From assembly GCA_963764625.1 (NCBI GenBank), contig CAVXTH010000005.1:1-64000 (forward strand): DNA of 64,000 nt, given 5' to 3'. The position numbers and the translations under genes are program-made. Shown piece after piece: positions 37,053 to 58,933 of the stretch. Source of the stretch: Candidatus Krumholzibacteriota bacterium (lineage in GTDB: Bacteria > Krumholzibacteriota > Krumholzibacteriia > JAJRXK01). Every line of letters begins with the position of its first letter. Within the stretch, counting starts at the first letter, position 1. The notes under the pieces were generated by a model that had not been told where the DNA came from, searched no databases, and saw only the letters and a program-made list of their open reading frames with translations.

Positions 37053-39080
37053 ATGTTGCACGCATCCTCTCCGCGCGGGCGATGCCTCTTCGCCGTCGCG
37101 CTCACTTTGCTTTGTCTTCTCTCGCTGGCTTCCTCCGCGTTCGGGGTGGAGTTTGTGGTGCCGGCAGGCGTGCACGGCGAGCTTCCGGCCCAGTTCCTCG
37201 CAAAGAGCACCATGACCGGCACGGGCAAGATTGCCACCGTCAACCAGACCCACTACGACGTTCTGCACTACGATCTCACTCTCGATCCCTCCTTCGACGA
37301 TCAGACGATCCAGGGCACGGTGCGCATCGACCTCGTGAGCCTGCTCGACGGGCTCACCGATCTCGAGTTCGACCTCTTTCAGAATCTCCAGGGAACCGGC
37401 GCCCATGACGATCAGGGGAATCCGCTGAGCTTCACCCACGAGAACGACTTGCTGACCGTGCAGCTCGCGGACCCGTTGTTCGCCGGTGACAGCCTGAGCG
37501 TCACCATCGACTACGAAGGTTCGCCCCAGCCGGTAGGATTTCTGGGAATGCAGTTTCTCCAGCACGATGGCACCCCGATCCTGGCCACCCTCAGCGAGCC
37601 CTATTACTCGCGTTCGTGGTGGCCCTGCAAGGATCTCCCCGACGACAAGTCGACGGTCACTCTCACCCTACGCGCGCCGCCCGGCTACTACTGCGCGGGC
37701 AACGGCGTGCTGACCTCCCAGGAAGTGCTTCCCAGCGGAGCAGGTACACTCTTCACCTGGGAGGAGGACTACCCCATCAGCTCGTACAACGTATCGGTCG
37801 CCGTGACCAACTACGTGGGGTGGACCGAGAACTGGACGAGCCCGAGCGGCACTCCGATGGTCCTGGAGTACAGGGTGTTTCCCGAGGACCTCAACAAGGC
37901 CCTCGTCGATTTCGCGTCCACACGGGAAATGCTCGACCTCTATTCAACGCTCTTCGGCGAGTATCCGTTCGTCAACGACAAGTACGGAATGGCGGAGTTC
38001 ATTTTCGACGGCGCCATGGAACATCAGACCATGACGAGCTACGGACAATCGCTCATCACCGGCGACAACTTCTACGAGACCCTCGTGGGTCACGAGATGG
38101 CGCACCAGTGGTTCGGCAACCTGGTCACGGTCAAGGATTGGAACGAAGTATGGCTCCACGAGGGCTTCGCCACCTACGCGGAGGCGCTCTGGGTCGAACA
38201 CAAGAGCGGGTTCGAGGCGTACCACCACTTCATGCTGTCGCATTCCGCCTATCAGATCGGCTTCTACGGTCCAGTGAGTCCGCCCATTCCCCTGTTCGGC
38301 GGAACCGTCTACCAGAAAGGCGCCTGGATTCTGCACATGTTACGCCACATGATCGGGGACAACGATTTCTTCCAGGTGCTCAAGACCTACTCGGCCTCGC
38401 CCAACTTACGTTACGGCGCGGCGAGGATCTCCGACTTCATTTCGATCGCGGAATCGGTGAGCGGCACCGAATTGTCCTGGTTCTTCGACGAGTGGCTCTA
38501 TCGCATCGGTCGTCCGGAATACCGGATGTCGTGGAGAAGCGAGAACCTGGGTGAGAACTACCGGGTGGTGGTTACGATCGAGCAGATGCAGAGCGGAGAT
38601 ACCTACCGCATGCCACTGGACTTCGTGGTGGACACCGCGGCGGGGAGTCAGACTTTCGTGGTGTGGAACGACGGAGCGTACCAGGTGGCCTCGTTCATCG
38701 TTCCGACGCAACCCACCGATGTCCGCCTCGATCCCGACGACTGGGTTCTGCGCTGGAACCAGAATCCCAATATTCCCACCTCGGTGCCACAGCTCACGGC
38801 GAGTCGGCTCGCGCTTCTCCCCAACGTTCCAAATCCCTTCAATCCCTCGACGCGCTTGCGGTTCACCCTTCCCGGGGAAGTTCCGGTCCAGTTGCGCATC
38901 GTCGACATGCGAGGCCGCACCGTCCGGCGTTTCCAAACCGATTCGATGGGGGCGGGACAGCACGAACTGATTTGGAGCGGGCGCGACGACAGTGGTCAAC
39001 CGGTGGCGTCGGGCGTGTATACCGTGGTGTTGCAGGAAGCGGACCAGACCGCGGCGCAGAGAATCACTCTGGTCAAGTAG
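37053..39080 (+). CDS. Secreted M1 aminopeptidase with C-terminal FlgD-Ig-like domain
   Basis: GAMEH, HEMAHQWFG...WLHEGFATY, YQKGAWILHML; PNPFNPST...WSGRDDSGQPVASGVY. Confidence 0.93.
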   Translation: MLHASSPRGRCLFAVALTLLCLLSLASSAFGVEFVVPAGVHGELPAQFLAKSTMTGTGKIATVNQTHYDVLHYDLTLDPSFDDQTIQGTVRIDLVSLLDGLTDLEFDLFQNLQGTGAHDDQGNPLSFTHENDLLTVQLADPLFAGDSLSVTIDYEGSPQPVGFLGMQFLQHDGTPILATLSEPYYSRSWWPCKDLPDDKSTVTLTLRAPPGYYCAGNGVLTSQEVLPSGAGTLFTWEEDYPISSYNVSVAVTNYVGWTENWTSPSGTPMVLEYRVFPEDLNKALVDFASTREMLDLYSTLFGEYPFVNDKYGMAEFIFDGAMEHQTMTSYGQSLITGDNFYETLVGHEMAHQWFGNLVTVKDWNEVWLHEGFATYAEALWVEHKSGFEAYHHFMLSHSAYQIGFYGPVSPPIPLFGGTVYQKGAWILHMLRHMIGDNDFFQVLKTYSASPNLRYGAARISDFISIAESVSGTELSWFFDEWLYRIGRPEYRMSWRSENLGENYRVVVTIEQMQSGDTYRMPLDFVVDTAAGSQTFVVWNDGAYQVASFIVPTQPTDVRLDPDDWVLRWNQNPNIPTSVPQLTASRLALLPNVPNPFNPSTRLRFTLPGEVPVQLRIVDMRGRTVRRFQTDSMGAGQHELIWSGRDDSGQPVASGVYTVVLQEADQTAAQRITLVK

Positions 39081-39082
39081 CG

Positions 39083-39111
39083 TCTCCACCCCGTACGAAT
39101 CGGGGAGGGGA
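39083..39111. terminator. GC-rich hairpin between the convergent peptidase gene and the large ncRNA
   Basis: TCTCCACCCCG-TACGAAT-CGGGGAGGGGA; no clear U tract. Confidence 0.45.
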
Positions 39112-39131
39112 GCAGGCCGGCCAACTGTGCC

Positions 39132-39841
39132 GAGTTCATGCCCCAGTGGACTCGACCAATGACCTGACTGGGGGGTGTCGGCTGAATCACTCAAGGTGTC
39201 CGTCGAACGAGGGCCCCCGCCGTCTGGCGCTCACAGGGGATCGACCCTGAAGCCTGTCCGTGCACGTCAGCCGGTCCTGCTTCCAACCCAACCGAACCGC
39301 GCGGATGAGGGGAAGGGAACTCAGGAGGCAAACGGTCCCTGAGAGGGTTTCCCCTCCCGTCCACCTCCCAGTACCCCGCCTGAACCCTTGTTTGAAAGAC
39401 GCCAGAGGCCGGAACACAGACGCGACATCAACGAGAACCGGCGCCGGGAGCACAGTCAACCAAATGCCCAGGCATTCACCCGCTGAAGAGCCGCGCGACG
39501 GGAAGTGGACTGCCTCACAACTGGCAGGCACTTCGGCCCGCTCTTCAGTCTTCACGAGTCTCTTGGGAAATTCCGGGCCTAGGGCGAGACGCAAGGCACC
39601 TGGCTGAACCGAGCAATCTCGCGACATCGCGCCTCTTGAAACTTCCAGTCCCCACTGGGACTAGACCCGCTTCGATAGACTTGGACGTCGCCGGTGACTC
39701 GGGTGAGGAATGCTCCAGTTCCGTAAGGAAGTGCGGCGAGGGTGCAAACTCGGGGTCTGGAGTCCCCTAGTCTCCGTGGAGGTAATGGTCCGTAGACGAG
39801 CCACTGGATAGACAAACAAGTCTACTTCGCCATGAACTCCT
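39132..39841 (-). ncRNA. Candidate large (~710 nt) structured non-coding RNA, class not recognised
   Basis: Own promoter; 5'/3' closing helices (39831-39839 with 39132-39140; 39797-39807 with 39143-39154); many nested helices whose G-U pairs only work on the minus strand; no credible ORF. Confidence 0.75.
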
Positions 39842-39847
39842 GTCGAA

Positions 39848-39876
39848 AAGTTACGGAAGCCATTCGGGGACGTCAA
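39848..39876 (-). promoter_or_regulatory. Sigma70 promoter of the large ncRNA
   Basis: TTGACG(39876-39871)-17 nt-TAACTT(39853-39848); predicted +1 near 39841, 2 nt before the closing helix. Confidence 0.7.
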
Positions 39877-39885
39877 CCCCCCCAC

Positions 39886-40740
39886 TCAACTCTGGCCGAG
39901 ATGGGTGGTAAACCACTCGGAACTCAAAGCCAGCGCGCGGTCCAGGGCGTCGGTCGTGCCCGCGAAGGGGTGAATCGCGTTCCAGGTGTGTCCGGTGCCC
40001 GGGATCATCTCCAGGTGGCAGCCGTCCGCCTCGCCGCGCCCCGCGCGGAGCGTCTGGGCATTCTGGGGATCGACCGCCAGATCATTCTCCGCCTGCAGAA
40101 TGAGGTGGGCCGCCTTCATTTCCTTGACCCCAGCGGTGAGGTCATAGCGCCGCGCGTTCTCGCGCGCATCTTCCACCAGAGTGAACCCCACCGCCATGCG
40201 CTGCTTCGTACGAGAATTCAGGAACTCCAGCTTGCCTTCCTCTTCCCAGTCGCGGAGCTGACGCTCGGTGTAGTGCAAGGCCTGGGAAATTCCGTTCCAG
40301 GTGACGAGAGCGGCGATCGCCGGATCCTCCCTCGCGACGACGATGGCGCTCAGGGCTCCCCGGCTGTGCGCGAGGAGACCGACACCAAGCCTACGGGTTT
40401 CTTCGGGAAGAGGAGACTCTCTTCGCAACCAGCTGAGGACATGCTCGAGATCCTCGATCTCCCGGGCATAGGTGTTGCGCTCGAAAAGATCCAGCCGATC
40501 GAACTCGCCGGGCCTCTCTCCGACTCCATTCAACGAGAAATCGAAGCAGACCGTGACGAATCCTCTGGTGGCCAAGGTGCGCCCGAGGTAGGGGAAGAAC
40601 CCCCAGTTCTTGAAACCCTTGAAGCCGTGCACGATTACGACCAGACCGAGGGCTTGCTCCTCGGCCGGCCGGCGGAGATCCAGGCGCAAGGGAAGTCCGT
40701 CCCTGCACTGAAGTTGGTGCTGGCTCTCTCTCAGGTTCAT
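39886..40740 (-). CDS. Alpha/beta hydrolase (start uncertain, 40740-40800)
   Basis: IVHGFKGFKNWGFFP, AHSRG nucleophile elbow, DLAV, TGHTW. Confidence 0.88.
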   Translation of the reverse strand: MNLRESQHQLQCRDGLPLRLDLRRPAEEQALGLVVIVHGFKGFKNWGFFPYLGRTLATRGFVTVCFDFSLNGVGERPGEFDRLDLFERNTYAREIEDLEHVLSWLRRESPLPEETRRLGVGLLAHSRGALSAIVVAREDPAIAALVTWNGISQALHYTERQLRDWEEEGKLEFLNSRTKQRMAVGFTLVEDARENARRYDLTAGVKEMKAAHLILQAENDLAVDPQNAQTLRAGRGEADGCHLEMIPGTGHTWNAIHPFAGTTDALDRALALSSEWFTTHLGQS

Positions 40741-40798
40741 CCCTACCATCCCCTTCGCCGATTTTCTTGAGCTTTCATCTCGTTCGGAAAGTGGTCGC

Positions 40799-41479
40799 AT
40801 GCGCGCGAATTCGCCAATCGAGGCGGCGGTTTTCGACCTGGACGGAACCCTGGTGGATTCGCGTCAGGCCATCGTCCATGCGGTCGCCGAAGGCGTTCGC
40901 CGCGTCTTTGAGAATCACGCGATCGACGATCACGCGCCCGACGAAACCGCGATCATGGATGCCATGGGCCTTCCCCCGGTGGAATACTACCGCAGAATCC
41001 TTCCTTCGCACCTGGCCCATCTGGCCGGCGAGGTCAAGGAGAGCGCCACCGCCGCCGAAATCGAAGTTCTGGCGCGGGGCGAGGGGAAGCTGTACCCGAA
41101 AGTACGCGAGACCCTGCAACAGCTGCGCGCGCGGGGCGTTCGCCTCGCGATCGTGAGCAACGCGCAGGAGCCGTATTTCCGCGCGTGTATACGCTACTTG
41201 AAGCTCTCGGATCTGGTGGAACACACCGAGTGTCACGAGGAACTTCCCGTGGGTGTCGGCGAAGGCAAGCCCGTGCTCTTGCGGCGGGCCCTCACAGAAT
41301 TGGGCGTGGAGGCGGCGCGCAGTGTGATGGTCGGAGACCGCAGGGAAGACATCGCCGCGGGCCAAGAACTGGGGTGCGCGACCGTCGGTTTGAGCTATGG
41401 CTTCGCGGGAGAGGGGGAACTCGAGGACGCCGATCAGGTGTACGCCGAATTCGAGCGCCTCCTGGAACTGGCGCGCTGA
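40799..41479 (+). CDS. HAD-superfamily phosphatase
   Basis: FDLDGTLVDS, IVSN, GKP, MVGDRREDI. Confidence 0.92.
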   Translation: MRANSPIEAAVFDLDGTLVDSRQAIVHAVAEGVRRVFENHAIDDHAPDETAIMDAMGLPPVEYYRRILPSHLAHLAGEVKESATAAEIEVLARGEGKLYPKVRETLQQLRARGVRLAIVSNAQEPYFRACIRYLKLSDLVEHTECHEELPVGVGEGKPVLLRRALTELGVEAARSVMVGDRREDIAAGQELGCATVGLSYGFAGEGELEDADQVYAEFERLLELAR

Positions 41480-41567
41480 TTCCGCCTCGCCACAAGCGCA
41501 CGCCGAGTACCCTTCCGACACAAGCCCACCCCCCACTGCGCCTTTTGGAGAATGGCGCCGAGGTCCC

Positions 41568-42783
41568 TCAGGCCACTCCCAGCTGCGCCCGCAGCGTCTG
41601 CAGTCCTTGGGCCGCGTCTCCCTCGAAACTACCCTGCGCTCGCTGCGCCTGACCACCGCCCTTGCCTCCCAGGGGCTTCAGAGGCGCGGCTCAGAATCTG
41701 TCCGCAGTGCAGAGACTCCAGCCCGACTCCACGCGAGAGGATCACCCGCGAGCGCTCGCCCTGCGGCGCCACTAAGAGTATGAGCAGATCGTTTTCCTCC
41801 CGCAGGGCGTTCGCAACTTCCGTCGCAGCGCCGGCAAGGGAGGGCGGAAGCACCCGGGCCAGCACCCGCGCGGAAACTCCCTCCAGCACGCAGTCCTGCG
41901 CTTCTGTGAGCCAGCGCTGGGCGCTCATCGCCGCCAGCTGGGCAGCCAGTTCCGCCGTTTGCTTGGCGTTGGTCTTGAGATCCTCGCGCTGGCGTTCGAC
42001 CAACGCTTCCAACTCCGCGTCACCGGTGGTGAGAAGGCGCCCCAGGCGGCCCACGAGACGGTCGCGTGAACGCCGGTAGTGAAGAGCGCGACGGCCGCAG
42101 AGAAAGTGCAGCCGGATTCCCCCACGCACTTTCTCGCGCCGCTGGATTGCAATGAGACCAATCTCCGCCGTGTTCGCGCAGTGGGTTCCCCCGCAGGCGT
42201 TGCGATCGAAGCCATCGATCTCGATGACGCGAAGCTCGGTTTGCCCCGGCGGGATCTTGCCGCGATCGACACTGTCCACGTCTTTCGGATCACGGAACCG
42301 CACCTGCACCGGCCGGGCCTCTTGGATCACCTGGTTCGCCGCGTCCTCGACGCGGTCGAGGGTCGCGTAGTCGAGGTCCTCCACTTCCAAGTCCAGCGTG
42401 TTCCCCGATTCCCCCAGACGCGAGCTGGTGGTGGAAAGACCCAGTTCGTCTTCGAAAATGCGTGAGAGAACGTGCTGGCCGGTGTGCTGCTGCCGGTGAT
42501 CCGCCCGGCGGAGTTCGTCCACCACACCCTCGACCTGGGCGCCCACCGCGAGCTCCGATTCTCCGGTGACGAAGTGGATGATCTCTCCCTTTTCTTCGTG
42601 CACATCCACCACTTGGTCTCCGTTCAGGGTTCCGCGATCGGCCATCTGTCCCCCGCTCTCCGGGTAGAAACAGCTGACGTCGAGACGCACGCGGCGCGGC
42701 CCTTCGCCCTCGGACTCGACGGCGGTGATCCGGGCCTGAAACCGGCATCGGTAGGCGTCGCGGTAGTAGAGGCGTTCGGTCAC
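41568..42783 (-). CDS. AlaX-type alanyl-tRNA editing protein with DHHA1 domain, apparent frameshift near 41682
   Basis: TERLYYRDAY, FYPESGGQ, QQHTGQHVLS, CGGTH; shifted frame gives LGGKGGG...AQG, stop at 41568-41570. Confidence 0.88.
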
Positions 42784-43017
42784 GGCAGAAGCTCCCTCCT
42801 GGAAAATGCCCGCCCGCCGGAACACGGGTGGGTTCTCTTCCGCCTCTCATCATACGCCAGGCGCCCCGGCTCTCAAATACCCCTGGATCCCCCGGGGGAA
42901 AGGTCCTGGGTTGGGGGCCGCAAACGCGGCCCAGCGCGCTTTCCGGCTTGATTTGGGTGCAGCTCTTGCATAGACTGAAGGCAAGCGTGGAGAAAGAGGT
43001 CTTGGGCTCGCTTTTTA

Positions 43018-43047
43018 TTGATATTGATTTGCAATTTCAATTAAAAT
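43018..43047 (+). promoter_or_regulatory. feoAB promoter overlapped by a Fur-box-like site
   Basis: TGATATT-G-ATTTGCA (43019-43033) matches 11/14 of TGATAAT-N-ATTATCA; TTGATA-18 nt-TAAAAT. Confidence 0.7.
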
Positions 43048-43123
43048 GAGCTAGCTTGGGATTCACTGGGGAAGTCGTTGGGGGGACTCGCTCCCCTGTC
43101 GCACGCTGGAGGAAACGCTCACG

Positions 43124-43345
43124 ATGACTCTCGATCAGCTCAAACCAGGTGAACGCGGTGTAATCACCGGCTGGACCGAGCAGGAGCCCCCGAGCCGTCT
43201 GCTCGAAATGGGTCTTCTGCAGGGCACGCTGCTGGAGATCATTCGCCTGGCCCCCTTGGGCGACCCCATCGACATTCGGATTCGCGGCTATCACCTCTCT
43301 CTGCGCAAGCACGAGGCTGGACTCGTCGAAGTTCAGCCCCTCTGA
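43124..43345 (+). CDS. feoA: Ferrous iron transport protein A
   Basis: RLLEMGLLQG, APLGDPI, LSLRKHEA. Confidence 0.95.
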   Translation: MTLDQLKPGERGVITGWTEQEPPSRLLEMGLLQGTLLEIIRLAPLGDPIDIRIRGYHLSLRKHEAGLVEVQPL

Positions 43346-43352
43346 GATCTCC

Positions 43353-45506
43353 ATGCGCTGGACCACCGGCGGAAGTTCCGCCCCCACCCTTTCCGAGCAT
43401 GCGAAGGCTGTCCGACTCGTTGCGCTGGCCGGAAACCCCAACGTGGGAAAGACCACCGTCTTCAATCAGCTCACGGGTTTACGTCAGAAAGTCGGCAACT
43501 ACCCCGGCGTCACAGTGGAGCGCAAGATCGGCCAGGTCACCACCGAGGGTGAGCTCGCGGTACAGCTCGTCGACGTTCCCGGGACCTACAGTTTGAATCC
43601 GCGCTCGATGGACGAGGAGATCGCCTACCGGGTGTTGGTGGGCGAAATGCAGGGACAGGAACGCCCCGATCTCATCGTCTGCGTGGTCGATGCGGGAAAT
43701 CTCGAGCGGAACCTCTATTTGACGAGCCAGGTCCTCGATCTGGGAATTCCCACCATCATCGCCCTCAACATGACCGACTCCTCGGAGCGCGAAGGCGTTT
43801 TCGTGGACGCTTCGGCTCTGTCCCGCGAGCTCGGGGTCCCGGTTTTTCCCCTGGCCGCGAGCAGCGGCAGGGGAATCGACACGCTGCGGCGCAGCCTCGC
43901 GGGGGAATTACCTCAAGTTCCACCCCGGCGCTGGAAGGCGCCGCCGGCCCTGCAGAAAGAGGTCGACCATCTGGCCGATTGTCTGGCCGAGGACCTGCCC
44001 AGTCTCTCTCCTTCGGTACGCTTCGCCGACGCCCTGCGAGCCCTGGCGAACACGACGGCTCCCCGCTTCGAAAGCCATCATTCCGAGCGCTTCTGGAACG
44101 AGGTCGAAGCCTCACGCCAGAGCTTGCGCGCGCAGGGGACGCTGTACGAACAAGAGGAGATCATCGCGCGCTACCAGTGGATCACTCCTTTGGCCGCGCG
44201 GGTCATCCAACTCAGACAAGAGGAAAATTACCGCAGCGTCAGCGAGAGAATCGACTCCATCCTGACCCATCGCTTCCTCGGTCCGGCCTTTTTCTTGGCC
44301 GTCCTGCTGGTGGTGTTTCAAGCGGTGTTCAGCTGGGCCGCGCCCTTCATGAATTGGATCCAAGACGGAATGGGCTGGCTGTCGACTGTGGCCAGTGCCC
44401 ATTTGCCGGCCGGTCTCTTACGCGGTTTGATCGTCGACGGAGTGCTCTCGGGAGTGGGCGGTGTGCTCGTCTTCCTTCCACAGATCCTCCTCCTCTTCTT
44501 CTTCCTGGGGCTTCTGGAAGACACCGGATACATGGCCCGCGTCGCATTCATCATGGACCGTCCCATGCGCAAGGTGGGCCTCAGCGGTCGCTCGGTCGTT
44601 CCGCTGATTTCCTCCTACGCCTGTGCGATCCCGGGGATCATGGCCACCCGCACCATGGACAGCCAGCGCGACCGTCTGGTCACCATGATGGTCGCTCCGT
44701 TCATGACCTGTTCGGCGCGGCTGCCGGTCTACGCCCTGGTCATTTCCGCCTTCGTCCCCGCGGCCGGCCACTTCGGATTCATCAGCTACCAGGCCCTTGC
44801 CCTCATGAGCTTGTACTTGATGGGTACGGGAATGGCCGTGCTCGCCGCCGCGTTTCTGCGCCATCGGATCATCAAGGGCAACGCCTCCACCTTCGTGATG
44901 GAGCTTCCCCCCTACCATAGGCCCCGACTGCGCGACGTGGCCTGGCGCATGTCCGAACGGGCCAAGATCTTTCTCACCCGCGCGGGAACGATCATTCTGG
45001 CCATGAGCATCGTACTCTGGTTCCTGGCCGCTTTCCCGCAGGCCCCCACCGACCCGGCGGGGGGTCAGATCGATTCGGGCACCCAGCTCGCCAACTCCTA
45101 CATGGGCCGAGCCGGACATCTCTGGGAGCCCATGCTGAAACCGCTCGGCTTTGACTGGAAGATCGGGGTGGCGCTACTCTCGTCCTTCGCGGCCCGGGAG
45201 GTCGTGGTCAGCGCGCTCGGCACCATCTACAGCGTGGGCGATACTTCAGGCGACGTCTCCACTCTGGAAAAGCGTCTGGTGAACGACACCTATCCCGATG
45301 GGACGCGCGTGTGGTCGCCGCTGGTCGCGGCGAGCCTGCTCATGTTCTTCGTACTCGCCTGCCAGTGCATGTCGACCCTCGCGGTGGTGAAACGGGAGAC
45401 GAATTCCTGGCGATGGCCGCTCTTCATGTGGACCTACATGTTCGCCCTAGCCTGGATCGCGTCCTTCACGGTCTACCAGGGTGGCCTTCTCTTGGGATGG
45501 GGGTGA
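43353..45506 (+). CDS. feoB: Ferrous iron transport protein B
   Basis: GNPNVGKT, NYPGVTVE, DVPGTY, NMTD, PFMTCSARLPVY, FAAREVVVS. Confidence 0.97.
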   Translation: MRWTTGGSSAPTLSEHAKAVRLVALAGNPNVGKTTVFNQLTGLRQKVGNYPGVTVERKIGQVTTEGELAVQLVDVPGTYSLNPRSMDEEIAYRVLVGEMQGQERPDLIVCVVDAGNLERNLYLTSQVLDLGIPTIIALNMTDSSEREGVFVDASALSRELGVPVFPLAASSGRGIDTLRRSLAGELPQVPPRRWKAPPALQKEVDHLADCLAEDLPSLSPSVRFADALRALANTTAPRFESHHSERFWNEVEASRQSLRAQGTLYEQEEIIARYQWITPLAARVIQLRQEENYRSVSERIDSILTHRFLGPAFFLAVLLVVFQAVFSWAAPFMNWIQDGMGWLSTVASAHLPAGLLRGLIVDGVLSGVGGVLVFLPQILLLFFFLGLLEDTGYMARVAFIMDRPMRKVGLSGRSVVPLISSYACAIPGIMATRTMDSQRDRLVTMMVAPFMTCSARLPVYALVISAFVPAAGHFGFISYQALALMSLYLMGTGMAVLAAAFLRHRIIKGNASTFVMELPPYHRPRLRDVAWRMSERAKIFLTRAGTIILAMSIVLWFLAAFPQAPTDPAGGQIDSGTQLANSYMGRAGHLWEPMLKPLGFDWKIGVALLSSFAAREVVVSALGTIYSVGDTSGDVSTLEKRLVNDTYPDGTRVWSPLVAASLLMFFVLACQCMSTLAVVKRETNSWRWPLFMWTYMFALAWIASFTVYQGGLLLGWG

Positions 45507-45511
45507 GCTCG

Positions 45512-45709
45512 GTGAACATCCTGCAATTCGTGGTCGTGATCGGGCTCGTGATTCTCGCCGCGGTCTATGCCGCGCGCCATGTCTTGCGCCAGTTCAATAC
45601 GGCCGATCAGGACTTCAGTGAGAGTGGAGGCGCGTGTTCGAACTGTAGTGCGAACGCGCTCGCGCGGAAGGCCAAGCGGATCGAGCCCTCACACCGCAAT
45701 TCGAGGTAG
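45512..45709 (+). CDS. FeoB-associated small Cys-containing membrane protein
   Basis: GTG 5 nt after feoB; one TM helix then GGACSNC. Confidence 0.7.
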   Translation: MNILQFVVVIGLVILAAVYAARHVLRQFNTADQDFSESGGACSNCSANALARKAKRIEPSHRNSR

Positions 45710-46840
45710 GGCTGGCGAGATTCGCGCCAGCACTTCGTAGTGGATCGTCCCTGCCCATTCCGCGAGCGTCTCCGCCGTGAGCTTCTCGCCCTCTTGCGTT
45801 CCCAGAAGGACTGCCTCGTCCCCGAGTTCCACTTGGGAAAGATGGGTAACGTCCACCATCATCAAGTTCATGCAGATGCGACCGCGCACCGCGCACCGCT
45901 TTCCGTGCAACAGCACGTGGGCGCGACCGGACATGCTTCGCGAATAGCCATCCGCGTATCCCACCGGGAGAAGCGCCAGGCGAGTGTCGACCTCCGCCTT
46001 GTCGGTGCATCCGTAGCCGATGTACGAACCGGCCGGAACCGTTTTGAGTTGAGCGACCCGCACTTTCCAGCTGAGAGCGGGCCCGATGCTAAGCTCCTCG
46101 TCCGAACCCCCTTTTCGGGCCGAAACCAGAGTCGCCGAGCTCGGCCAGTAGCCGTAGGCCGAAATGCCGATGCGTGCGAGATCCATGTAGCGCGAGGGGA
46201 AGAGGATCGCGGCCGCGCTGCAACTCATGTGAATGGCCTGAGGACGCAGGCCCGACCGCGAGATTTGTTCCAACACCTCGTCGAAGACCCGAGATTGCTC
46301 TTCCGCATAGCTGTGATCGGTCGTGTCCTCGATGTTGGCGTAATGGCTGTGCACGCCGACCAACTCGAGTGCGGGTTCGCTCTTGATCGCCGCGAGACAG
46401 CTCGCCAGCTCCTCGCCGGTCACTCCCTGTCGCCAGGTTCCCGTCTCCACCTTGAGGTGGATCTTGGCCGGATAGCCGCTCTTCAAGGCGACCTGGGCCA
46501 GATCGCGCAAGCGCGGCGCATCGTACACCGTCAGGTCGAAGCCCGCCTCGATCGCCGCCTGCATTTCATCATCACCTAGAGGCCCCAGGATCAGGATACG
46601 CCGGCCGAGCGCCAACTCGGCCACGAGTTTGGCCTCGGTGAACGAATGGACGCAGAACCAGGAGGCCCCCCCCGCGGCAAACGCCCGCGCCGCGAGCTGA
46701 AGACCGTGGCCGTACGCATTGCTCTTCACCACCGGGGCGAGCGCCGTGTTCTGGGGCAGGTGTTTCGCGAAGGCCCGGAGATTTTGCGTCAAGACCTCGG
46801 TCTCGACTTCAACCCATTGCAAAGCCGCGATCGCGGACAT
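45689..46840 (-). CDS. alr: Alanine racemase
   Basis: VVKSNAYGHG, HLKVETG, IGYG, PVGYADG, GRICMN, GTIHYE. Confidence 0.96.
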   Translation of the reverse strand: MSAIAALQWVEVETEVLTQNLRAFAKHLPQNTALAPVVKSNAYGHGLQLAARAFAAGGASWFCVHSFTEAKLVAELALGRRILILGPLGDDEMQAAIEAGFDLTVYDAPRLRDLAQVALKSGYPAKIHLKVETGTWRQGVTGEELASCLAAIKSEPALELVGVHSHYANIEDTTDHSYAEEQSRVFDEVLEQISRSGLRPQAIHMSCSAAAILFPSRYMDLARIGISAYGYWPSSATLVSARKGGSDEELSIGPALSWKVRVAQLKTVPAGSYIGYGCTDKAEVDTRLALLPVGYADGYSRSMSGRAHVLLHGKRCAVRGRICMNLMMVDVTHLSQVELGDEAVLLGTQEGEKLTAETLAEWAGTIHYEVLARISPALPRIAV

Positions 46841-46866
46841 TCTCGTCTCCTCGCCGCCGAGCCGGC

Positions 46867-47859
46867 TCAGTTTTCCGGGGGTGCCACACCTTCGAGATGA
46901 CCGTAGAGCTCGTGCCGGTGCCGCAGGAGTTTGAATCCCAATTCCCTGGCCAGCTTCTCCTGAAGCTCCTCGATCTTGTCGTTGCGGAACTCGATGATCC
47001 TCCCGCTCCTCTGACAGATCATGTGGTCGTGGTGCTCCAGCCCGCGGGTCTCGTAGCGGGTGCGACCGCCCTCGAAACTCCGGCTGGCGGCAAGACCCGA
47101 ATCGACCAGCAGTTTCAGGGTGCGGTACACGGTGGCGTATCCGATCTGCGGATCGCTCCGCTTCACTTCCGCGAGCAACTCGTCGACGCTGACGTGGCCC
47201 TCGAGCTTCGCGAAGATCTCCACGATAAGATCGCGTTGTCGGGTCGATTTCAAATGTTCCTGGGACAGGTACTTGCGGAAGGCGGTGGGAAGATTCTCGG
47301 CGGACCGGCGCTCGTGGGAAGCGGGCTGGGAGGTCTTGGAGCTGAAGGGTCGTCCAGCGAGTTTGTCCTGGCCGTCTTTGGAATTGAAGCGGCAGGGACG
47401 GCCGGCGAAGAAATCCTCACAGACTCCGTAGAGTTCGTGGCAGTGATTCTCGATGTGAAACCCGGCCGTCTTCGCCACCTCTTCCTGTAGCGCTTCCACT
47501 TCTGGCAGCTTGAACTCGATGACGAGTCCGCATTCCGCACAGATGAGATGGTCGTGATGTTCCTGGCCGCGAACCTCGTAGCGGCTCTCTCCGTCTCCGA
47601 AATGCCGCACGCTGGCCAGGCCCGAATCGACCAAGAGCTTCAGGGTGCGGTAGACCGTGGCGTAGCCGATGCCCTTTTCCTTGCGGGTAACCTCGCGCAG
47701 CAAGTCCTCGACACTCGCGTGCCCCTCCATGCGCGCGAACACGCCCACGATGGCCTCGCGCTGGCGCGTGCACTTCAGGTTTTCCCTCAGGAGATAGGCG
47801 CGGAACTCGTCGACCAGATCGGAAGAACCCCGCGCGTCAGGAGACTTTGTCTCTACCAT
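46867..47859 (-). CDS. fur: Fur-family regulator with two complete Fur domains in tandem
   Basis: TRQR, IGYATVYRTLKLLVDSGLA, HHDH(L/M)IC and HELYG each occur twice in one open frame; start set at ATG 47859. Confidence 0.9.
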   Translation of the reverse strand: MVETKSPDARGSSDLVDEFRAYLLRENLKCTRQREAIVGVFARMEGHASVEDLLREVTRKEKGIGYATVYRTLKLLVDSGLASVRHFGDGESRYEVRGQEHHDHLICAECGLVIEFKLPEVEALQEEVAKTAGFHIENHCHELYGVCEDFFAGRPCRFNSKDGQDKLAGRPFSSKTSQPASHERRSAENLPTAFRKYLSQEHLKSTRQRDLIVEIFAKLEGHVSVDELLAEVKRSDPQIGYATVYRTLKLLVDSGLAASRSFEGGRTRYETRGLEHHDHMICQRSGRIIEFRNDKIEELQEKLARELGFKLLRHRHELYGHLEGVAPPEN

Positions 47860-47906
47860 GGTCAAGCCTCCCCAACCGGGGAAATTCGAGGGCGCCAGCT
47901 CGATCT

Positions 47907-47956
47907 TGAAAATGACTATCAATGCCGAAACTAGGCGAGCCCCCGGGGGCTGTCAA
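47907..47956 (-). promoter_or_regulatory. Promoter of tandem fur with a Fur box at the start site
   Basis: TTGACA(47956-47951)-17 nt-TAGTTT(47933-47928); TGATAGT-C-ATTTTCA (47921-47907) matches 12/14 of the 7-1-7 consensus. Confidence 0.75.
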
Positions 47957-49464
47957 GCAGTCGCGGAGCTGGGCGCGTCCAGGGAGGTGATCAGCGCTTC
48001 CTGTCCGTCGTACTGGATCAGGATCGGCTTTTCCTGGTAAACGCTCTCGATGCAGACCGGCTTTCCCCACAGGGCGAAGAGGTTCGCCAGGGTGGCTTTG
48101 GCGTATTCGATGTCCAGCGGAATTCCCTCGTAGGTGTGCTTGAGAAAGAGGATCCCGTGCCCCTTGTGATCGGCGTCGACAACGGTGATCAGGGGGTGAC
48201 CCCCGTTAGTGAGTTGGGCCAGTAGCTGCTTCTTGATCTTGGCGAACTCCCGGCTCGCGATGACGTACTGATCCTTTTCCAGATCATACCGATAGATGAA
48301 CATGCGGTGTTCCTGGGCGAACTCCTCGGTGAGGAAGGTGTCGATGAAAGTGACGTCGTTGTGCACCGTACGCACTTCGAAGATCTTCTCGCGTCCCTTC
48401 CCGATTCCGGTATCCCAGTTCATGCGTTCCTTGTAGTTCTCGCAGTCCTCGTACGCGTTCCCGAAGCGGCCCTTGTTCCACCTCTCCTCGATGTCGCGGT
48501 AGAGATAGAGGCCCAGCTTGTAGGGATTGACCGAGTCGTTTCCTCCCATGGTGCCGCTGTGATGGTCGGCGAAATCCACGATCTCCGAGTCGTTGAGGAC
48601 TTTCTCCGTCATGAGTTTGGAGTGCCAATAGCTGGCCCAGCCCTCGTTCATGATCTTGGTCTGCCACTGTGGGGCGAAGTAGTAGGATTCGTCGCGGATC
48701 ATACCCAGGATATCCCGTTGCCAACGGGTCAACGGCGCGTGCTGCATGAGGAAGAGCAGAACATCGCGCTCCGGGCTTTCGGGAAACTTCTTGGGTTGCC
48801 GCTGCTTTTCTTCGCGCTTGCGTCTTTCCCTTTCTTCCTGCACCGCCGCGGTCGCGTTGATGAAGCTCTCCATGTACGACTTGGCTTCGAAACGCACGCG
48901 AGGCGCCGGCTCCGGTTCAACCGGAGCGGTCTCGTCCACCGACGTCCGTTTCTTGCTTCGAAACACGGAGTGAACGTCGATCAGACGCTCGAGGGATACA
49001 CACCGGTCGAGAAACTGCTCGACCTCGTCGAGTCCGAAGCGTGCGATGTAACGACGGATGCGCGAGGCGTGATTCGCCATGGTGTCGATCATTTGACGAT
49101 CGGTCTGTGAAAACCATACATTGTTCTTGAAGAAATCGCAGTGACCGTACACGTGACACATTACGAGTTTCTGGTCGACGAGATGGTTCTCCTTCATCAG
49201 GTAGGCGTAGCAGGGGTCGTTGTTGATGACCATTTCGTAGATCTTCGAGAGTCCGTACGCGTAGCCTTTGCTGAGCTGGTCGAAACTCATGCCATGCGAC
49301 CAATGGGGATAGCGGACGGGGAAACCGCCGTAGCTGGCCACTTCGTTCAGTTGGCGATAGTCGATGACTTCGAAGTTTAGCTCGAAGAAATCCAGGCCGT
49401 ACTCGCGCGCGTACGTCTCGATCTTCACCTTCCAGCCCCTCAGATCCTCGCTCAACTCCGACAT
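47953..49464 (-). CDS. spoVR: SpoVR/YcgB family protein
   Basis: RYPHWSHG, KIYEMVINNDPCYAYL, HVYGHCDFFKNN, TKIMNEGWASYWH, NPYKLG. Confidence 0.95.
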   Translation of the reverse strand: MSELSEDLRGWKVKIETYAREYGLDFFELNFEVIDYRQLNEVASYGGFPVRYPHWSHGMSFDQLSKGYAYGLSKIYEMVINNDPCYAYLMKENHLVDQKLVMCHVYGHCDFFKNNVWFSQTDRQMIDTMANHASRIRRYIARFGLDEVEQFLDRCVSLERLIDVHSVFRSKKRTSVDETAPVEPEPAPRVRFEAKSYMESFINATAAVQEERERRKREEKQRQPKKFPESPERDVLLFLMQHAPLTRWQRDILGMIRDESYYFAPQWQTKIMNEGWASYWHSKLMTEKVLNDSEIVDFADHHSGTMGGNDSVNPYKLGLYLYRDIEERWNKGRFGNAYEDCENYKERMNWDTGIGKGREKIFEVRTVHNDVTFIDTFLTEEFAQEHRMFIYRYDLEKDQYVIASREFAKIKKQLLAQLTNGGHPLITVVDADHKGHGILFLKHTYEGIPLDIEYAKATLANLFALWGKPVCIESVYQEKPILIQYDGQEALITSLDAPSSATA

Positions 49465-49467
49465 GCC

Positions 49468-50574
49468 CTACCTACCCTTCCCGAGGAAGTCTTTGATGCT
49501 GTCTGGAATGTCGTCCTTGGTGTCGATCTGACTGGTGACCAGGTTCTCCGCGCCCTCGAGCTGCTTGTCCAATTCGCGTTTGAACTGGCCCGAACCGTAG
49601 GTGGATGTCACCTGGCCATAGGAGAATTGATTGACGGCCGGCAAGAGGGTCTCTTTCAAGAGTGCCAGACAACGTTCGGTATCGCCTCCGCCCCAGTTGT
49701 CCCCGTCGGAAAAATGGAAAGGATAGATATTCCATTCGTGCGGCGGATAATTTTCGTCGATGATTTCCGCGCACAAATTGTAAGCGCTGCTGATCTTGGT
49801 GCCACCGCTCTCGCGGGTGTGGAAGAAGGTGTGGCGATCGACTTCGTGGGCCACCGCGTCATGGATCACAAAGCGCGTCTGCAGGTTGGCGTATTGGCTC
49901 TTGAGCCAGGTGTCGATCCAGAAGGCCTCGATCCGCACCGTCTCCTTTTGCTCGTCCCCCATCGACCCCGAGACGTCCATCATGTAGATGATGACGGCGT
50001 TGGAGGCCGGCTGCTGCACCTTCACCGGAGCCCGGTAGCGCATGTCGCGACGAATGGGAATGACCATCGGGTCGAGCGGGTCGTAGGCTCCGGTCTGGAG
50101 CTGGCGCTTGAGCGCCTCCCGATAGCTGCGCTTGAAGTGGCGTAAGCCCTGGGGCCCCACCAACTGGATGCTGCTGTAGCGAGAGCGGGCCGAGCTGATC
50201 TGTTGCTTGCCCCTGGGCTCGATGCGGGGGAGCTCGAGTTCCTCTCCCATGAGCTTCGCCAACTCGTCGATGGAGAGCTCGACCTCCAGGACGTGTTCTC
50301 CCGGGGCGTCGCCGGCGGGACCGGCAGCGTCCCCTTCCTGGCCGGGGGCGGGCTGGCCTTCAGCGCCTTCGCCGAAGCCGATTCCCCCCTGCTCCTTGGC
50401 TCCAAAACGAAAGCGGGGAATTTCGATGGTGGGCACGGGGATGGACACGAGGTCCTTCCCCTTGCGTCCGATCATCTCGCCGTGCGAGATGTAGCGGCGC
50501 AGGTTCTCCTTGATCCGGCCACGGACGATATCCTGGAAACGGTGGAGATCACGATCGATGCGGCTGATCTGCAT
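49468..50574 (-). CDS. yeaH: YeaH/YhbH (DUF444) vWA-like protein
   Basis: [33 protein letters not shown]; lies between prkA and spoVR. Confidence 0.93.
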
Positions 50575-50588
50575 CTCGGCCGCCTTCG

Positions 50589-52652
<2,064 letters not shown>

Positions 52653-52706
52653 CGTCTTCTCCCGCAATTGGGGCCTCAAACTTGGGGGATCGTCCTACAT
52701 GCAGGC

Positions 52707-52722
52707 TGCAATCTCCATACCA
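52707..52722 (-). promoter_or_regulatory. Sigma54 (-24/-12) promoter of prkA-yeaH-spoVR
   Basis: TGGTATG-GAGA-TTGCA fits TGGYAYR-N4-TTGCW, 55 nt upstream of ATG 52652. Confidence 0.75.
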
Positions 52723-52884
52723 AGCTCGAATCTGATGTCAACTGGTGTGATGACAAGCCGTTGCGCTCGCAGGGGTGCAAGGTCATGGAGTGGAACTCGC
52801 CGCTGACATCCTCAACTTAGCCATGGTGGGCGGGGGCCGTCAAGCAAACCGAAGCACGCTGTGCGCGGCCGAAACGGCCCGAGC

Positions 52885-53661
52885 TCAGGGAAGAATCTCC
52901 AGGCGCACCGCTTCGGAGTCACTGGCCGCCACGGTCCACAGGCCCTTCCCATCCCAGCTGAGACTCACGAATTCTCCCGGCCGGAAGAACGCGTCCCGGG
53001 CGATCACCGCGTCTCTACGGCCAGTGGTTCCAGTGAGCCGGTAGAGCCGGCCGGTGCTGGCGTCGGCCGACCAGAAGTGGTAGCCGTCGTAGGCCAGGCC
53101 GGTGGGATAAAACGCGGGTGCGGCGACTTTCTTCGACACTCGCCCTTCCTCGGTGTCCACCCGCAAGATATTGCGCGCATCACAGTCGACCACCCAGAGG
53201 TAGAGGCCGTCGTAGGCCATCCCGCCCGGATGATGACCGGGTGAAGGAAGGGTTAAGAGAACCGAGCCATCCGCGGGCGAAATCTGGTAGATCCCGCTGC
53301 TAGCTCCGAGAAGACTGCCGCTGCTCCACCAGTTCTCGCCGTCAGAGGCCAGGCCGGTTTCGAATTCGTTGGATTGCGCGGCCAGCACGGAGAGTTCCCG
53401 TGAGGAAGCGCGCCATCGCATGAGCCTGACCTGAAAACTGGAATCCGGCGCGGAGAGACCGGTGTTGCCCGTGGCCAGGAGCACGACCGCGTCCTTCTGG
53501 ACCAGGAACCCCCGCACCCCATCGGTCGGCAGCGGCATCCGCGCGTCCACCACGGCGCCGATCTCCGGTAGGGATTGGAGATCCACCGCATGGGCCGAAG
53601 AGGGCAGGCCACTCAGGAGCAGGAATACAGCGGCAAGAACGCGCGGACAGCTGGATTTCAC
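52885..53661 (-). CDS. Secreted beta-propeller protein (glutaminyl-cyclotransferase/NHL-like repeats)
   Basis: Signal peptide ...SSAHA; repeats GLASDGENWW, GMAYDGLYLW, GLAYDGYHFW, SLSWDGKGLW; GTG 53661 chosen as start. Confidence 0.75.
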   Translation of the reverse strand: MKSSCPRVLAAVFLLLSGLPSSAHAVDLQSLPEIGAVVDARMPLPTDGVRGFLVQKDAVVLLATGNTGLSAPDSSFQVRLMRWRASSRELSVLAAQSNEFETGLASDGENWWSSGSLLGASSGIYQISPADGSVLLTLPSPGHHPGGMAYDGLYLWVVDCDARNILRVDTEEGRVSKKVAAPAFYPTGLAYDGYHFWSADASTGRLYRLTGTTGRRDAVIARDAFFRPGEFVSLSWDGKGLWTVAASDSEAVRLEILP

Positions 53662-53775
53662 GATGGACTTCGACCTCTGGCTCTCCGGTTGCACCCAGGA
53701 TTGGACTTCGCCGCGGATGGCTAACACGCTAGCGAAGAAGCGCGAGAGTGTCGACGCGATTCTCCCACCGAAAGG

Positions 53776-53810
53776 CAAACGAACGCCGGGTCCCTGAAAG
53801 GGACCCGGCG
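53776..53810 (-). terminator. Intrinsic terminator
   Basis: Perfect 12-bp stem CGCCGGGTCCCT/AGGGACCCGGCG (53784-53810) followed by UUCGUUU on the minus strand. Confidence 0.85.
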
Positions 53811-53949
53811 CACGGTAGCACAACGATTATCGCGATCCAACGGATGGCAGCGTTTCGTCCCTTACTGGCGTAGCGCTGAAAGCCCCTCGTATTCCTGACA
53901 CACCTCCAGCCGCCTCCGCCAGTAAGTAGACTTGTTTGCCTATCCGAAA
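53776..53949 (-). ncRNA. Candidate ~170-nt sigma54-dependent small RNA
   Basis: Bounded by a -24/-12 motif and an intrinsic terminator; 10-bp stem 53917-53926/53861-53870 and 8-bp G-U-containing stem 53903-53910/53875-53882; 5' 22 nt complementary to the large ncRNA. Confidence 0.7.
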
Positions 53950-53958
53950 ACATTCTAA

Positions 53959-53975
53959 TGGCATATTGCGTGCCA
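53959..53975 (-). promoter_or_regulatory. Sigma54 (-24/-12) promoter of the small RNA
   Basis: TGGCACG-CAAT-ATGC with GG-N10-GC spacing; AT-rich ~150 bp upstream (53976-54130) could hold activator/IHF sites. Confidence 0.65.
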
Positions 53976-54132
53976 GCAATTCGAGCGGATTCCGGAGAAA
54001 ACACTCGGAGCTAATCTATTGTCATGAAACTAGTTAGAACCACAGCCGGGGAGAGGGTCCCGCCCTACAAAAAACTAAACCATCAAGCAATTTAATGTTC
54101 CAGAAAATAATTTTACTTTTTGGGGAAAACTC

Positions 54133-54495
54133 TCAGAGCTCGGAGTGCCCTGTCTCGTCGGAGCTGGTCGCGGATTCGAACTCGACGGTGTCGGCGACTT
54201 CACCGTCATAGAGCAAAGTGTCAGGATCGCCCTTGAGAACGATACGCACCCGCGTGGACTGGTTCTTCTCCAGAGCAGCGATGACGCCCTTGATGAGATC
54301 GGTGCCCGACTGGACCGTGAGATCGATCGGCTCGCTGGTGTCGACGACCAGGACCTGAGTCGCCGAGGGCAGCTCGTGGGTTCCGGCCTCGAGGGTGGTC
54401 TTGATGGCCCATTTCGCCTCAGCCGGCCGCAAAGTCAGGGACGTGAAGAGTGCGACGAAGAGGAGAAGAACGGCAAGAATGCTGGCGCGGAACAT
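54133..54495 (-). CDS. Small secreted hypothetical protein
   Basis: Signal peptide MFRASILAVLLLFVAL...AEA; GGGAGG SD. Confidence 0.75.
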   Translation of the reverse strand: MFRASILAVLLLFVALFTSLTLRPAEAKWAIKTTLEAGTHELPSATQVLVVDTSEPIDLTVQSGTDLIKGVIAALEKNQSTRVRIVLKGDPDTLLYDGEVADTVEFESATSSDETGHSEL

Positions 54496-54610
54496 GAAAA
54501 TCCCTCCCCCGTAGGGTCCTCAGCAGCGTGGCCCCTAGTGTTCATCTACTATACGGCTTGTGGGCCGCCGAGCGAAACCCTTTTCTGGCTCGTTTTCGGC
54601 CAATGCACCC

Positions 54611-58933
<4,323 letters not shown>

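Follow-up and report, generated by a model that had tools for sequence, protein, structure and literature searches.

Conserved bacterial non-coding RNAs (ncRNAs) longer than 400 nt are few, and their functions are hard to assign. RNA sponges are typically only 100-300 nt long, and the sigma-54-dependent small RNAs (sRNAs) that lie beside activator genes include Qrr, next to LuxO, and GlmY, next to GlrR. In Caulobacter, the sponge CrfA inactivates the sRNAs SisA-D (as outlined in PMC12559287). Here we describe a large RNA encoded on the minus strand of a 64,000-nt stretch of DNA (the window; positions 1 to 64,000, forward strand, of contig CAVXTH010000005.1, assembly GCA_963764625.1) from a Candidatus Krumholzibacteriota bacterium. 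The evidence makes it very probable that this is a real, expressed, structured, non-coding RNA of an undescribed family; judged by its complementarity, it probably pairs with a predicted sigma-54-dependent sRNA, and in an evenly poised working model it would serve as the sponge or decoy of that sRNA. An earlier note on this DNA had proposed a new or divergent class of large ncRNA and had named Rfam, homologues in related genomes, covariation, folding z-scores and transcripts as the places to look for support, and conserved protein coding as what would speak against it. Its central proposal is upheld by the Rfam, coding, covariation and RNA-contig results. Made from one sequence, that note could not see the complementarity to the sRNA, which is the best hint at function. 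The sigma-54 sRNA is previously unnoticed, and its complementarity to the large RNA is new here.

Distribution and novelty of the large RNA

The large RNA and its promoter occupy the following positions.

39111-39841, minus strand: large ncRNA, ~731 nt (5' end predicted, 3' end set at the end of an RNA contig)
39871-39876, minus strand: -35 box TTGACG of the large-RNA promoter, read from the sequence
39848-39853, minus strand: -10 box TAACTT, separated from the -35 box by a spacer of 17 nt

The region is single-copy within the genome (G000; 3.57 Mb, 96.4% complete, with the window on its contig C5) and falls in an intergenic gap of 805 nt (39081-39885) that has a hydrolase gene on one side and a convergent M1 peptidase gene on the other; its GC content (~0.58-0.65) is similar to that of the surroundings. 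The promoter of its own that the earlier note had claimed is there, but the start given for it, 39876, belongs to the -35 box, and the box positions would place +1 near 39841. A sigma-70-type promoter of the form TTGAC(G/T/C), 17-18 nt, TA..(T/G)T is kept in all nine genomes read, and was recognised by eye in the tenth (G009).

All 10 species-level genomes of one Krumholzibacteriota family carry the large RNA. They span four genera: G000 with its congeners G001-G004, two further genera represented by G005 and G006, and a fourth (g4) comprising G007-G009. The full RNA occurs in the same gene context in G002 and G003, at 79-80% identity; the flanking coding DNA is 75-77% identical over 3 kb, no higher than the RNA. 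In G001 and G004 the shared portion is limited to the promoter, the 5' motif and the final ~180 nt, giving an RNA of ~410 nt. A covariance model of the 3' part (R1), run against 151 sampled genomes of the phylum, finds the homologues of G005 and G006 at full length and none outside the family. Those RNAs (~900 and ~760 nt) have several sequence blocks in common with that of G000, and a 49-nt BLAST match in G006 is colinear with the large RNA of that genome. In G007-G009 the RNA (~480-560 nt) gives no R1 match and was found by scanning near the sRNA gene and with a model of the middle module (R3), which recovers G009 even though that genome is absent from its training set; promoter, 5' motif and middle module are present there and the 3' rod is missing. 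Across the family, length thus ranges over ~410-900 nt, and the only universal parts of the 10 large RNAs are the promoter and the 5' motif. Models R1, R2 (for the sRNA) and R3 had no match in 142 genomes of eight other families under the strict filters of Infernal, to which weak matches may be lost. One metagenome contig, L106, is near-identical to G003 and was confirmed by R1. Three others (L103, L104 and L105) have only a 37-nt 3'-rod pattern, with no R1 match at default filters and no 5' motif, and were taken as chance, as is probably the case for a 23-nt BLAST match in G040.

The Rfam collection includes models of OLE, GOLLD, ROOL, HEARO and raiA. None of the 4227 models of Rfam 15 matched the 64-kb window at gathering score, which leaves the claim of novelty standing. 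A permissive scan of 38900-40100 returned three matches far under their thresholds (best E = 2.1), namely Pospi_RY, sR53 and IRES_Bag1 (E 2.1-5.5), which we regard as noise, and the loci of G005, G006, G004 and G001 had no Rfam match at E <= 0.1. The earlier note had seen no hallmarks of RNase P RNA or transfer-messenger RNA (tmRNA), and both are indeed located elsewhere in the genome, above threshold: tmRNA at C6:35676 (158 bits) and RNase P RNA at C6:131032 (301 bits). The same holds for 6S RNA (C6:723021-723200, 55.7 bits) and signal recognition particle RNA (C6:293681, 77.8 bits). ARAGORN found no tRNA or tmRNA in the window; a permuted tmRNA, suggested by GGGGGCCCUCGUUCGACGG, was ruled out since the tmRNA sits elsewhere. 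A limited literature search on non-coding RNA in Krumholzibacteriota turned up, in the material it reached, no description of such an RNA.

Nothing in the alignments of close relatives points to a conserved protein. Substitutions relative to G002 and G003 are spread evenly over position modulo 3 (50/50/44 and 49/49/45), compared with 40/22/97 in the last 741 nt of the peptidase gene, and nine 1-nt indels and one 8-nt indel set G000 apart from the others. An open reading frame (ORF) of 146 aa in G000 shrinks to 66 aa in G002 and is absent in G003; no ORF of at least 25 aa is kept among the three genomes, and the local ORFs match no Pfam family. Codon periodicity is therefore lacking, and the indels break the frame.

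Expression

Contigs from three salt-marsh metatranscriptome runs (X4, X5 and X8), which had been found using this stretch itself, and from a DNA run (X1) were placed on 38000-55000. X5 contributes one 719-nt contig (depth 36.3, 97.5% identical) that covers 39111-39802, its remaining 25 letters being Illumina adapter that abuts 39111. Two contigs come from X4, at 39368-39817 (depth 7.6) and 39024-39330 (depth 3.3), and two from X8, at 39124-39274 and 39426-39595; the DNA run is flat at 0-3.5. Contigs of RNA libraries cover 39111-39817, and their placement fits a transcript that runs from ~39841 to ~39111. Among the contig pieces listed (122 more exist), none bridges the large RNA and the hydrolase gene. 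Contig depth cannot rank genes, and uncovered stretches, for example that of the sRNA (53858-53950), are uninformative on expression. By the tests of transcription and of coding alike, the large RNA is an expressed, non-coding transcript.

These data also bear on whether the region could instead be the mRNA of a small protein (e.g. a type I toxin with an sRNA antitoxin), a flanking 3' untranslated region (UTR) or a cis-regulatory leader. Type I toxin mRNAs are long and structured, and are paired over ~20 nt by a trans-encoded sRNA. The 5' end of the large RNA has, at 39818-39838 (minus strand) and within the stem of the 5' hairpin, AGGAG and, 3 nt further on, a mini-ORF made up of a start codon, two sense codons and UAG; such a 3-codon ORF is kept in G000, G002 and G003 (MAK, MGK and MVK), and the X4 contig at 39024-39330 links the region to the end of the peptidase gene. 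The mini-ORF is, however, absent in G001, G005 and G006 and is probably coincidental, and the missing periodicity, the frame-breaking indels and the lack of any ORF kept in three close genomes all argue against an mRNA. In all genomes whose ORFs were listed or seen (G000, G005, G006, G007 and G008), the next gene downstream is convergent with the large RNA, which is therefore not a leader; besides, the flanking genes change between genera while the promoter persists. Coding, leader and UTR readings are accordingly very unlikely.

A predicted sigma-54-dependent sRNA complementary to the 5' motif

A search of the relatives for the 5' motif found a second site in each genome, which corresponds to the predicted sRNA. 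The features concerned are listed below.

39805-39828, minus strand: 5' motif of the large RNA, GAAGUAGACUUGUUUGUCUAUCCA, complementary to the sRNA 5' end by duplex prediction
53858-53950, minus strand: partner sRNA (predicted), with an unpaired 5' end, CGGAUAGGCAAACAAGUCUAC, ahead of a long hairpin; model R2
53961-53975, minus strand: sigma-54 promoter, TGGCACGCAATATGC, 12-13 nt upstream of the sRNA
54133-54495, minus strand: 120-aa ORF with a hydrophobic, signal-peptide-like N-terminus, between activator and sRNA; no Pfam family
54611-58933, minus strand: 1440-aa protein with TPR and sigma-54 activator (enhancer-binding protein) domains (Sigma54_activat, E 1.7e-70; AAA_lid_14; HTH_8; TPR)
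39192-39221, minus strand: possible second sRNA contact in the 3' rod, CCCUCG..(C)UGACAC, complementary to the sRNA loop GUGUCAG..CGAGGG

The sRNA element of ~90 nt is present in all 10 family genomes at 81-92% identity, compared with ~69% for its flanks. It starts with the conserved (C/U)GGAUAGGCA, 12-13 nt after the GC of a -24/-12 promoter, TGGCAC-N5-(A/T)TGC (the GG-N10-GC form), that precedes it in 10 of 10 genomes; a promoter pattern of this type occurs just 26 times on both strands of the 3.57-Mb genome, in which rpoN is present. The sRNA fold comprises 28 pairs, seven of them compensated, with many G-U pairs in the minus sense. R2 matches eight of eight sampled family genomes and none of the 142 others, and no Rfam family matches the sRNA at E <= 1. 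The sRNA shares contig and strand with the large RNA in 9 of 10 genomes and is encoded 7-21 kb upstream of it (~14 kb in G000). The C-terminus of the activator, in which ~600 N-terminal residues without a Pfam match are followed by TPR, sigma-54 AAA+ and HTH_8 domains, adjoins the sRNA in all 10 genomes, and homologues of the 120-aa ORF do so in at least eight of the 10 (tblastn); RNA contigs from three runs, on 54068-54526, cover this ORF.

With both genes on one strand and the DNA motif shared between them, the two RNAs are complementary. In G000, nucleotides 2-23 of the sRNA are predicted to form 22 consecutive pairs with 39805-39828 (-36.6 kcal/mol, z = -9.0), and no other non-self match to the sRNA seed in this genome (7.1 Mb, both strands) scores as high as the 5' motif, with 45 against 29 for the next. 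The best duplex of sRNA nt 1-26 lands on the 5' motif in all seven genomes so analysed (z from -2.0 to -9.0), and the predicted duplexes measure 15-25 bp and -24.5 to -36.6 kcal/mol across all 10. Every large RNA has the motif core G(U/C)C(U/G)AUCC within its first 120 nt, and the motif ends in ..G(U/C)CUAUCCA. Its CUAUCC end is predicted to lie in or beside a hairpin loop in most genomes, and the matching GGAUAG of the sRNA is at the free 5' end. Several differences between genomes are matched on both sides: G004 combines GCCGAUCC with GGAUCGGC, where the others have GYCUAUCC with GGAUAGGC, and further matched changes are CUCG/CGAG in G002, CCUG/CAGG in G001 and GUGGCC/GGCCAC in G008. Cognate pairs average -29.5 kcal/mol and non-cognate ones -24.7 kcal/mol, a difference equalled by three of 20000 permutations in a test that the relatedness of the genomes inflates. 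Taken together, these data make pairing between the large RNA and the sigma-54 sRNA likely.

The second complementarity involves the 3' rod: in six of seven genomes the sRNA hairpin loop has its best duplex at the second contact site, and this duplex is strong in G004, G001 and G006 (z -6.8, -4.6 and -4.4). Compared with a plain inverted copy of the sRNA gene, the order of the two complementary blocks is permuted, which we take to argue against a single duplication or conversion tract.

The same ~20-nt motif could in principle act as DNA, as an operator or as a repeat under gene conversion, with the large RNA working alone like OLE, ROOL or GOLLD. The two copies do form an inverted repeat, with 39805-39828 spanning +14 to +37 of the large RNA and 53923-53946 spanning roughly +1 to +24 of the sRNA; if both DNA copies changed in concert, the outcome would look like the matched RNA changes, and some of the differences between copies would be mismatches as RNA. 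The motif is nevertheless found at the exact 5' end of the sRNA, as is often the case for seeds, and in most genomes it falls within or next to a large-RNA hairpin loop; the second complementary block, in permuted order, also speaks against a DNA site. Just two such sites exist in the genome, and a change at both would require the regulator protein to change too. We therefore consider a DNA site improbable.

Several observations concern the sRNA and its surroundings. The motif (C)CGU.CGAUCGCGA occurs 35-45 nt past the sRNA hairpin (~53775-53857, minus strand) in all ten genomes. The G000 copy precedes the hairpin CCGGGUCCCUUUCAGGGACCCGG and a U-rich stretch, which means that the sRNA may reach ~175 nt. 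The third-best seed match, GAACCAGAUUUGUUUGCCGAUCCU at C9:333130-333153 (minus strand, score 29), is surrounded by long open frames and could represent a target mRNA of the sRNA. A prkA / DUF444 (yeaH-like) / spoVR operon (47953-52679, minus strand) is located between the sRNA and the large RNA, and a 351-aa tandem Fur-Fur fusion (46867-47922, minus strand), in which two stretches match the FUR family, is encoded next to the alanine racemase gene and opposite feoB. Neither Hfq (PF17209) nor CsrA (PF02599) was found in the 96.4%-complete genome, and the former result fits long, chaperone-free pairing; the genome thus lacks matches to both proteins, yet has at least two candidates for trans-acting RNAs.

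Structure and modular evolution

The modules of the large RNA are as follows.

39778-39840, minus strand: 5' hairpin domain holding the motif (GGAG.U.CAUGG/CCAU.A.CUCC plus GUAGAC/GUCUAC); RNAalifold columns 6-69, one compensated pair
39483-39548, minus strand: long hairpin, 9+6+5 bp; RNAalifold columns 300-366, three compensated pairs
39300-39433, minus strand: middle module, a conserved block (GAAGAGUCGCGUCGG in other genera) plus hairpin; covariance model R3, E 2.8e-22
39112-39290, minus strand: 3' rod domain, ~180 nt, self-contained, with internal loops; 5-sequence alignment

Folding of the single sequence from G000 gave a minimum free energy of -321.7 kcal/mol and a z-score of -1.85 for the minus strand, compared with -0.35 for the plus strand (20 shuffles each). 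The z-score that the earlier note had called for is thus weak, only weakly better than chance, and single-sequence folding alone would not carry the claim of a structured RNA. Covariation is more telling: compensated pairs are present in the 5' hairpin, the middle hairpins and the 3' rod. The full-length RNAalifold structure of the three congeners G000, G002 and G003 comprises 240 pairs, with 97.1% of 720 cells paired and 16 compensated pairs, compared with 1-4 when partners are slid; 90 G-U cells in the sense fold would be A-C on the other strand, and alifold scores the sense strand at -286.6 and the antisense strand at -264.8. In the 3' rod (five sequences), 64 pairs are formed with 90.3% of cells paired, and 12 pairs are compensated, whereas shuffles average 5.1 (0 of 500 reach 12) and slid partners give 0-3. 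The middle hairpin, compared over seven sequences from four genera, has 22 pairs, 12 of them compensated, and an invariant internal loop, CAGGGA. The few related sequences that yielded these structures also served to score them, so that the counts lean favourable, and in a MAFFT alignment of seven full-length RNAs the divergent rows were too poor for structure work.

The helices proposed earlier from the one sequence fared unevenly. Those listed by their strands are given first.

39839-39831 and 39140-39132, minus strand: end-closing helix strands GAGUUCAUG and CAUGAACUC, read from the sequence
39807-39797 and 39154-39143, minus strand: CCAGUGG/CCACUGG helix strands CCAGUGGCUCG and CGAGUCCACUGG, read from the sequence
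39664-39657 and 39652-39645, minus strand: hairpin strands CUAGUCCC and GGGACUGG
39273-39267 and 39185-39179, minus strand: CGGCUGA and UCAGCCG, read from the sequence

All eight motif pairs of the earlier note do occur in the window, at or a few bases from the places given. Three local hairpins among them gain from the comparison: the one formed by CUAGUCCC and GGGACUGG keeps 8/8 pairs in all three congeners with four compensated, that at 39483-39548 has three compensated pairs in the same genomes, and that at 39307-39356 is supported by compensation that extends across four genera. The long-range helices did not hold up. In G002 and G003, the end-closing helix keeps 8/9 and 7/9 pairs, the CCAGUGG/CCACUGG helix 4/7 and 3/7, the 14-bp helix (39607-39594/39469-39456; 14/14 pairs in G000, four of them G-U) 8/14 and 10/14, and the helix 39629-39642/39390-39402 only 3/8 and 3/8, in each case with uncompensated changes. 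CGGCUGA/UCAGCCG is invariant within the genus, and RNAalifold pairs CCGGCUGA with the 3' end instead. An overall fold with ends closed by long-range helices is consequently not conserved; GGAG.U.CAUGG of the 5' strand has its partner nearby, in CCAU.A.CUCC (one compensated pair), and the 3' strands belong to the self-contained rod.

The strain variant represented by the RNA contig is compatible with the proposed fold. Of its 17 substitutions, 16 are listed: eight are unpaired, five fall in standard pairs (four turn G-U into G-C or A-U and one breaks a pair), and two more affect positions that are already mismatched.

The large RNA is thus modular, and genera keep or lose the 5' hairpin, middle hairpins or 3' rod as units. 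The conservation and covariation of the middle hairpin and the 3' rod go beyond what a decoy needs, and this favours a different reading in which the large RNA is an effector, for instance one whose CAGGGA hairpin or 3' rod binds a protein, with the sRNA as its on/off switch; the sRNA could open the 5' hairpin, hold the 5' and 3' domains together or target the large RNA for duplex-specific cleavage. An effector of this kind shares all the pairing evidence with a sponge, including the perfect 22-bp duplex predicted in G000, and nothing in the genome other than the large RNA matches the sRNA seed strongly, as expected if the large RNA is the main target. Set against this, no module other than the 5' motif is universal, with the middle module missing from G001 and G004 and the 3' rod from g4, and neither CsrA nor Hfq was found in G000. 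We regard such an effector as possible but unlikely. A more specific version, in which an activity residing in the CAGGGA hairpin or the 3' rod would be gated by the sigma-54 sRNA clamping both ends, seems rather unlikely. A CsrA-titrating RNA was also entertained and dropped since CsrA was not found in G000.

Working model

We favour a sponge or decoy, a full working model that could equally well prove right or wrong. The 5' docking site is the sole part besides the promoter that occurs in all ten large RNAs and is therefore taken as the functional core; together with a housekeeping-type promoter and the apparent abundance of the large RNA, this makes a sponge or decoy the simplest model. When the activator fires, the sigma-54 promoter would produce the sRNA, whose free 5' end (GGAUAG..) would dock on the CUAUCC loop of the 5' hairpin and zip into a long duplex; in most genomes the sRNA hairpin loop may also contact CCCUCG..GACAC in the 3' rod. 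The large RNA, made constitutively, would thereby titrate the sRNA and set a threshold. As to the direction of control, a sponge rather than a target is a tentative choice, and somewhat doubtful.

A number of findings weigh against this sponge model or against parts of its foundation. A pure sponge leaves the conserved middle hairpin with its CAGGGA loop and the 3' rod unexplained, and a sponge needs other targets of its sRNA, whereas G000 holds no other strong seed match (none above 29, in a search that did not include short mRNA seeds). The expression of the sRNA and the RNA-RNA pairing are predictions, with no RNA contig over the sRNA. The cognate partner is not always the best one (row ranks 1, 4, 2, 2, 1, 1, 5, 6 and 1), and ten related genomes from four genera inflate both the permutation test and the covariation counts. 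Within the duplex, a single shared position accounts for most G-U wobbles, which amount to one event, and there are true mismatches: A-C in G002 and G003, C-A in G002 and G006, and three in G004. In G000 (z +0.7), G003 (-0.7) and G005 (-1.0), shuffled sequences do as well as the second contact, the best site for the sRNA loop in G002 lies elsewhere, and the RNAs of g4 have no 3' rod and hence not the domain of this second site. The structural argument carries the z-score of just -1.85 for the single sequence, and the contigs give neither the strand nor the true ends of the transcript, one of them (X4) crossing the proposed 3' end to 39024, into the end of the peptidase gene.

Flanking genes

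The neighbours of the large RNA are the following.

39886-40800, minus strand: alpha/beta-hydrolase gene (ORF list and Pfam)
37053-39080, plus strand: M1 peptidase gene with a C-terminal FlgD_ig domain, convergent with the large RNA
39084-39112, strand left open: hairpin CUCCCCUCCCCG-AUUCGUA-CGGGGUGGAG, seen by eye between the 3' end of the large RNA and the peptidase stop codon

The hairpin has no U tract on either strand and is missing in G001 and G004; it could act as a terminator for either of the convergent transcripts. In G005 and G006 the large RNA sits behind an SDR-like gene rather than the hydrolase gene, and in G005, G006 and G009 it is flanked by an SDR-like gene and other convergent genes, the SDR-like label resting on C-terminal residues alone, without a family search. 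Among the best 80 loci with homologues of the M1 peptidase, one is 82% identical and the others, from other phyla, are 26-37% identical, so that linkage to the peptidase is unhelpful beyond the genus.

Comparison with known systems

The large RNA evolves by gain and loss of whole modules around a fixed docking site, and it comes with a functional handle in the form of a dedicated, signal-controlled sRNA partner, with the sigma-54 promoter and the activator gene known from sequence. The regulatory logic is consequently testable although the organism is uncultured. The narrow distribution (10 species-level genomes of one family) limits the general reach of these results.

Individual modules recall known RNAs. 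The ~180-nt 3' rod with its internal loops resembles 6S RNA, but the 6S RNA of this genome is encoded elsewhere, the Rfam 6S model does not match, and the rod is missing in g4. CsrB/RsmZ-type RNAs are likewise long ncRNAs with GGA-containing loops, in which ANGGA is the CsrA-type binding motif; CAGGGA fits this motif, but a single such loop is conserved and a CsrA gene was not found. The partner sRNA is similar to Qrr and GlmY in having a -24/-12 promoter and in lying directly downstream of the gene for an enhancer-binding protein, as with LuxO and GlrR, and differs from them in that it has no Rfam match and that its only strong match in the genome is another ncRNA. Should the activity of the large RNA prove to be gated by this sRNA, the two would constitute a two-RNA device of an undescribed kind and the first functional RNA pair known from the uncultured phylum Krumholzibacteriota.

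With the large 'ornate' RNAs OLE, GOLLD and ROOL (PMC12286853), the large RNA shares a size of several hundred nucleotides or more, a lack of coding capacity, many conserved helices, a transcript of its own and a function that is not obvious. It differs in matching no Rfam 15 model, in its one-family distribution, in its variable modules and in its dedicated sRNA partner, and evidence of self-assembly is lacking for it. RNA sponges, as exemplified by CrfA (PMC12559287), are closest in logic, being ncRNAs that are complementary to an sRNA seed, have their own promoter and are under separate control. Compared with these, the large RNA is long (~410-900 nt) and richly structured, with covarying modules apart from the pairing site; it has one sRNA partner rather than a family, in a genome where Hfq was not found, and its titration of that partner is putative. 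If it is indeed a sponge, control by RNA sponges would reach an uncultured, Hfq-less phylum, and this sponge would be several times the usual size.

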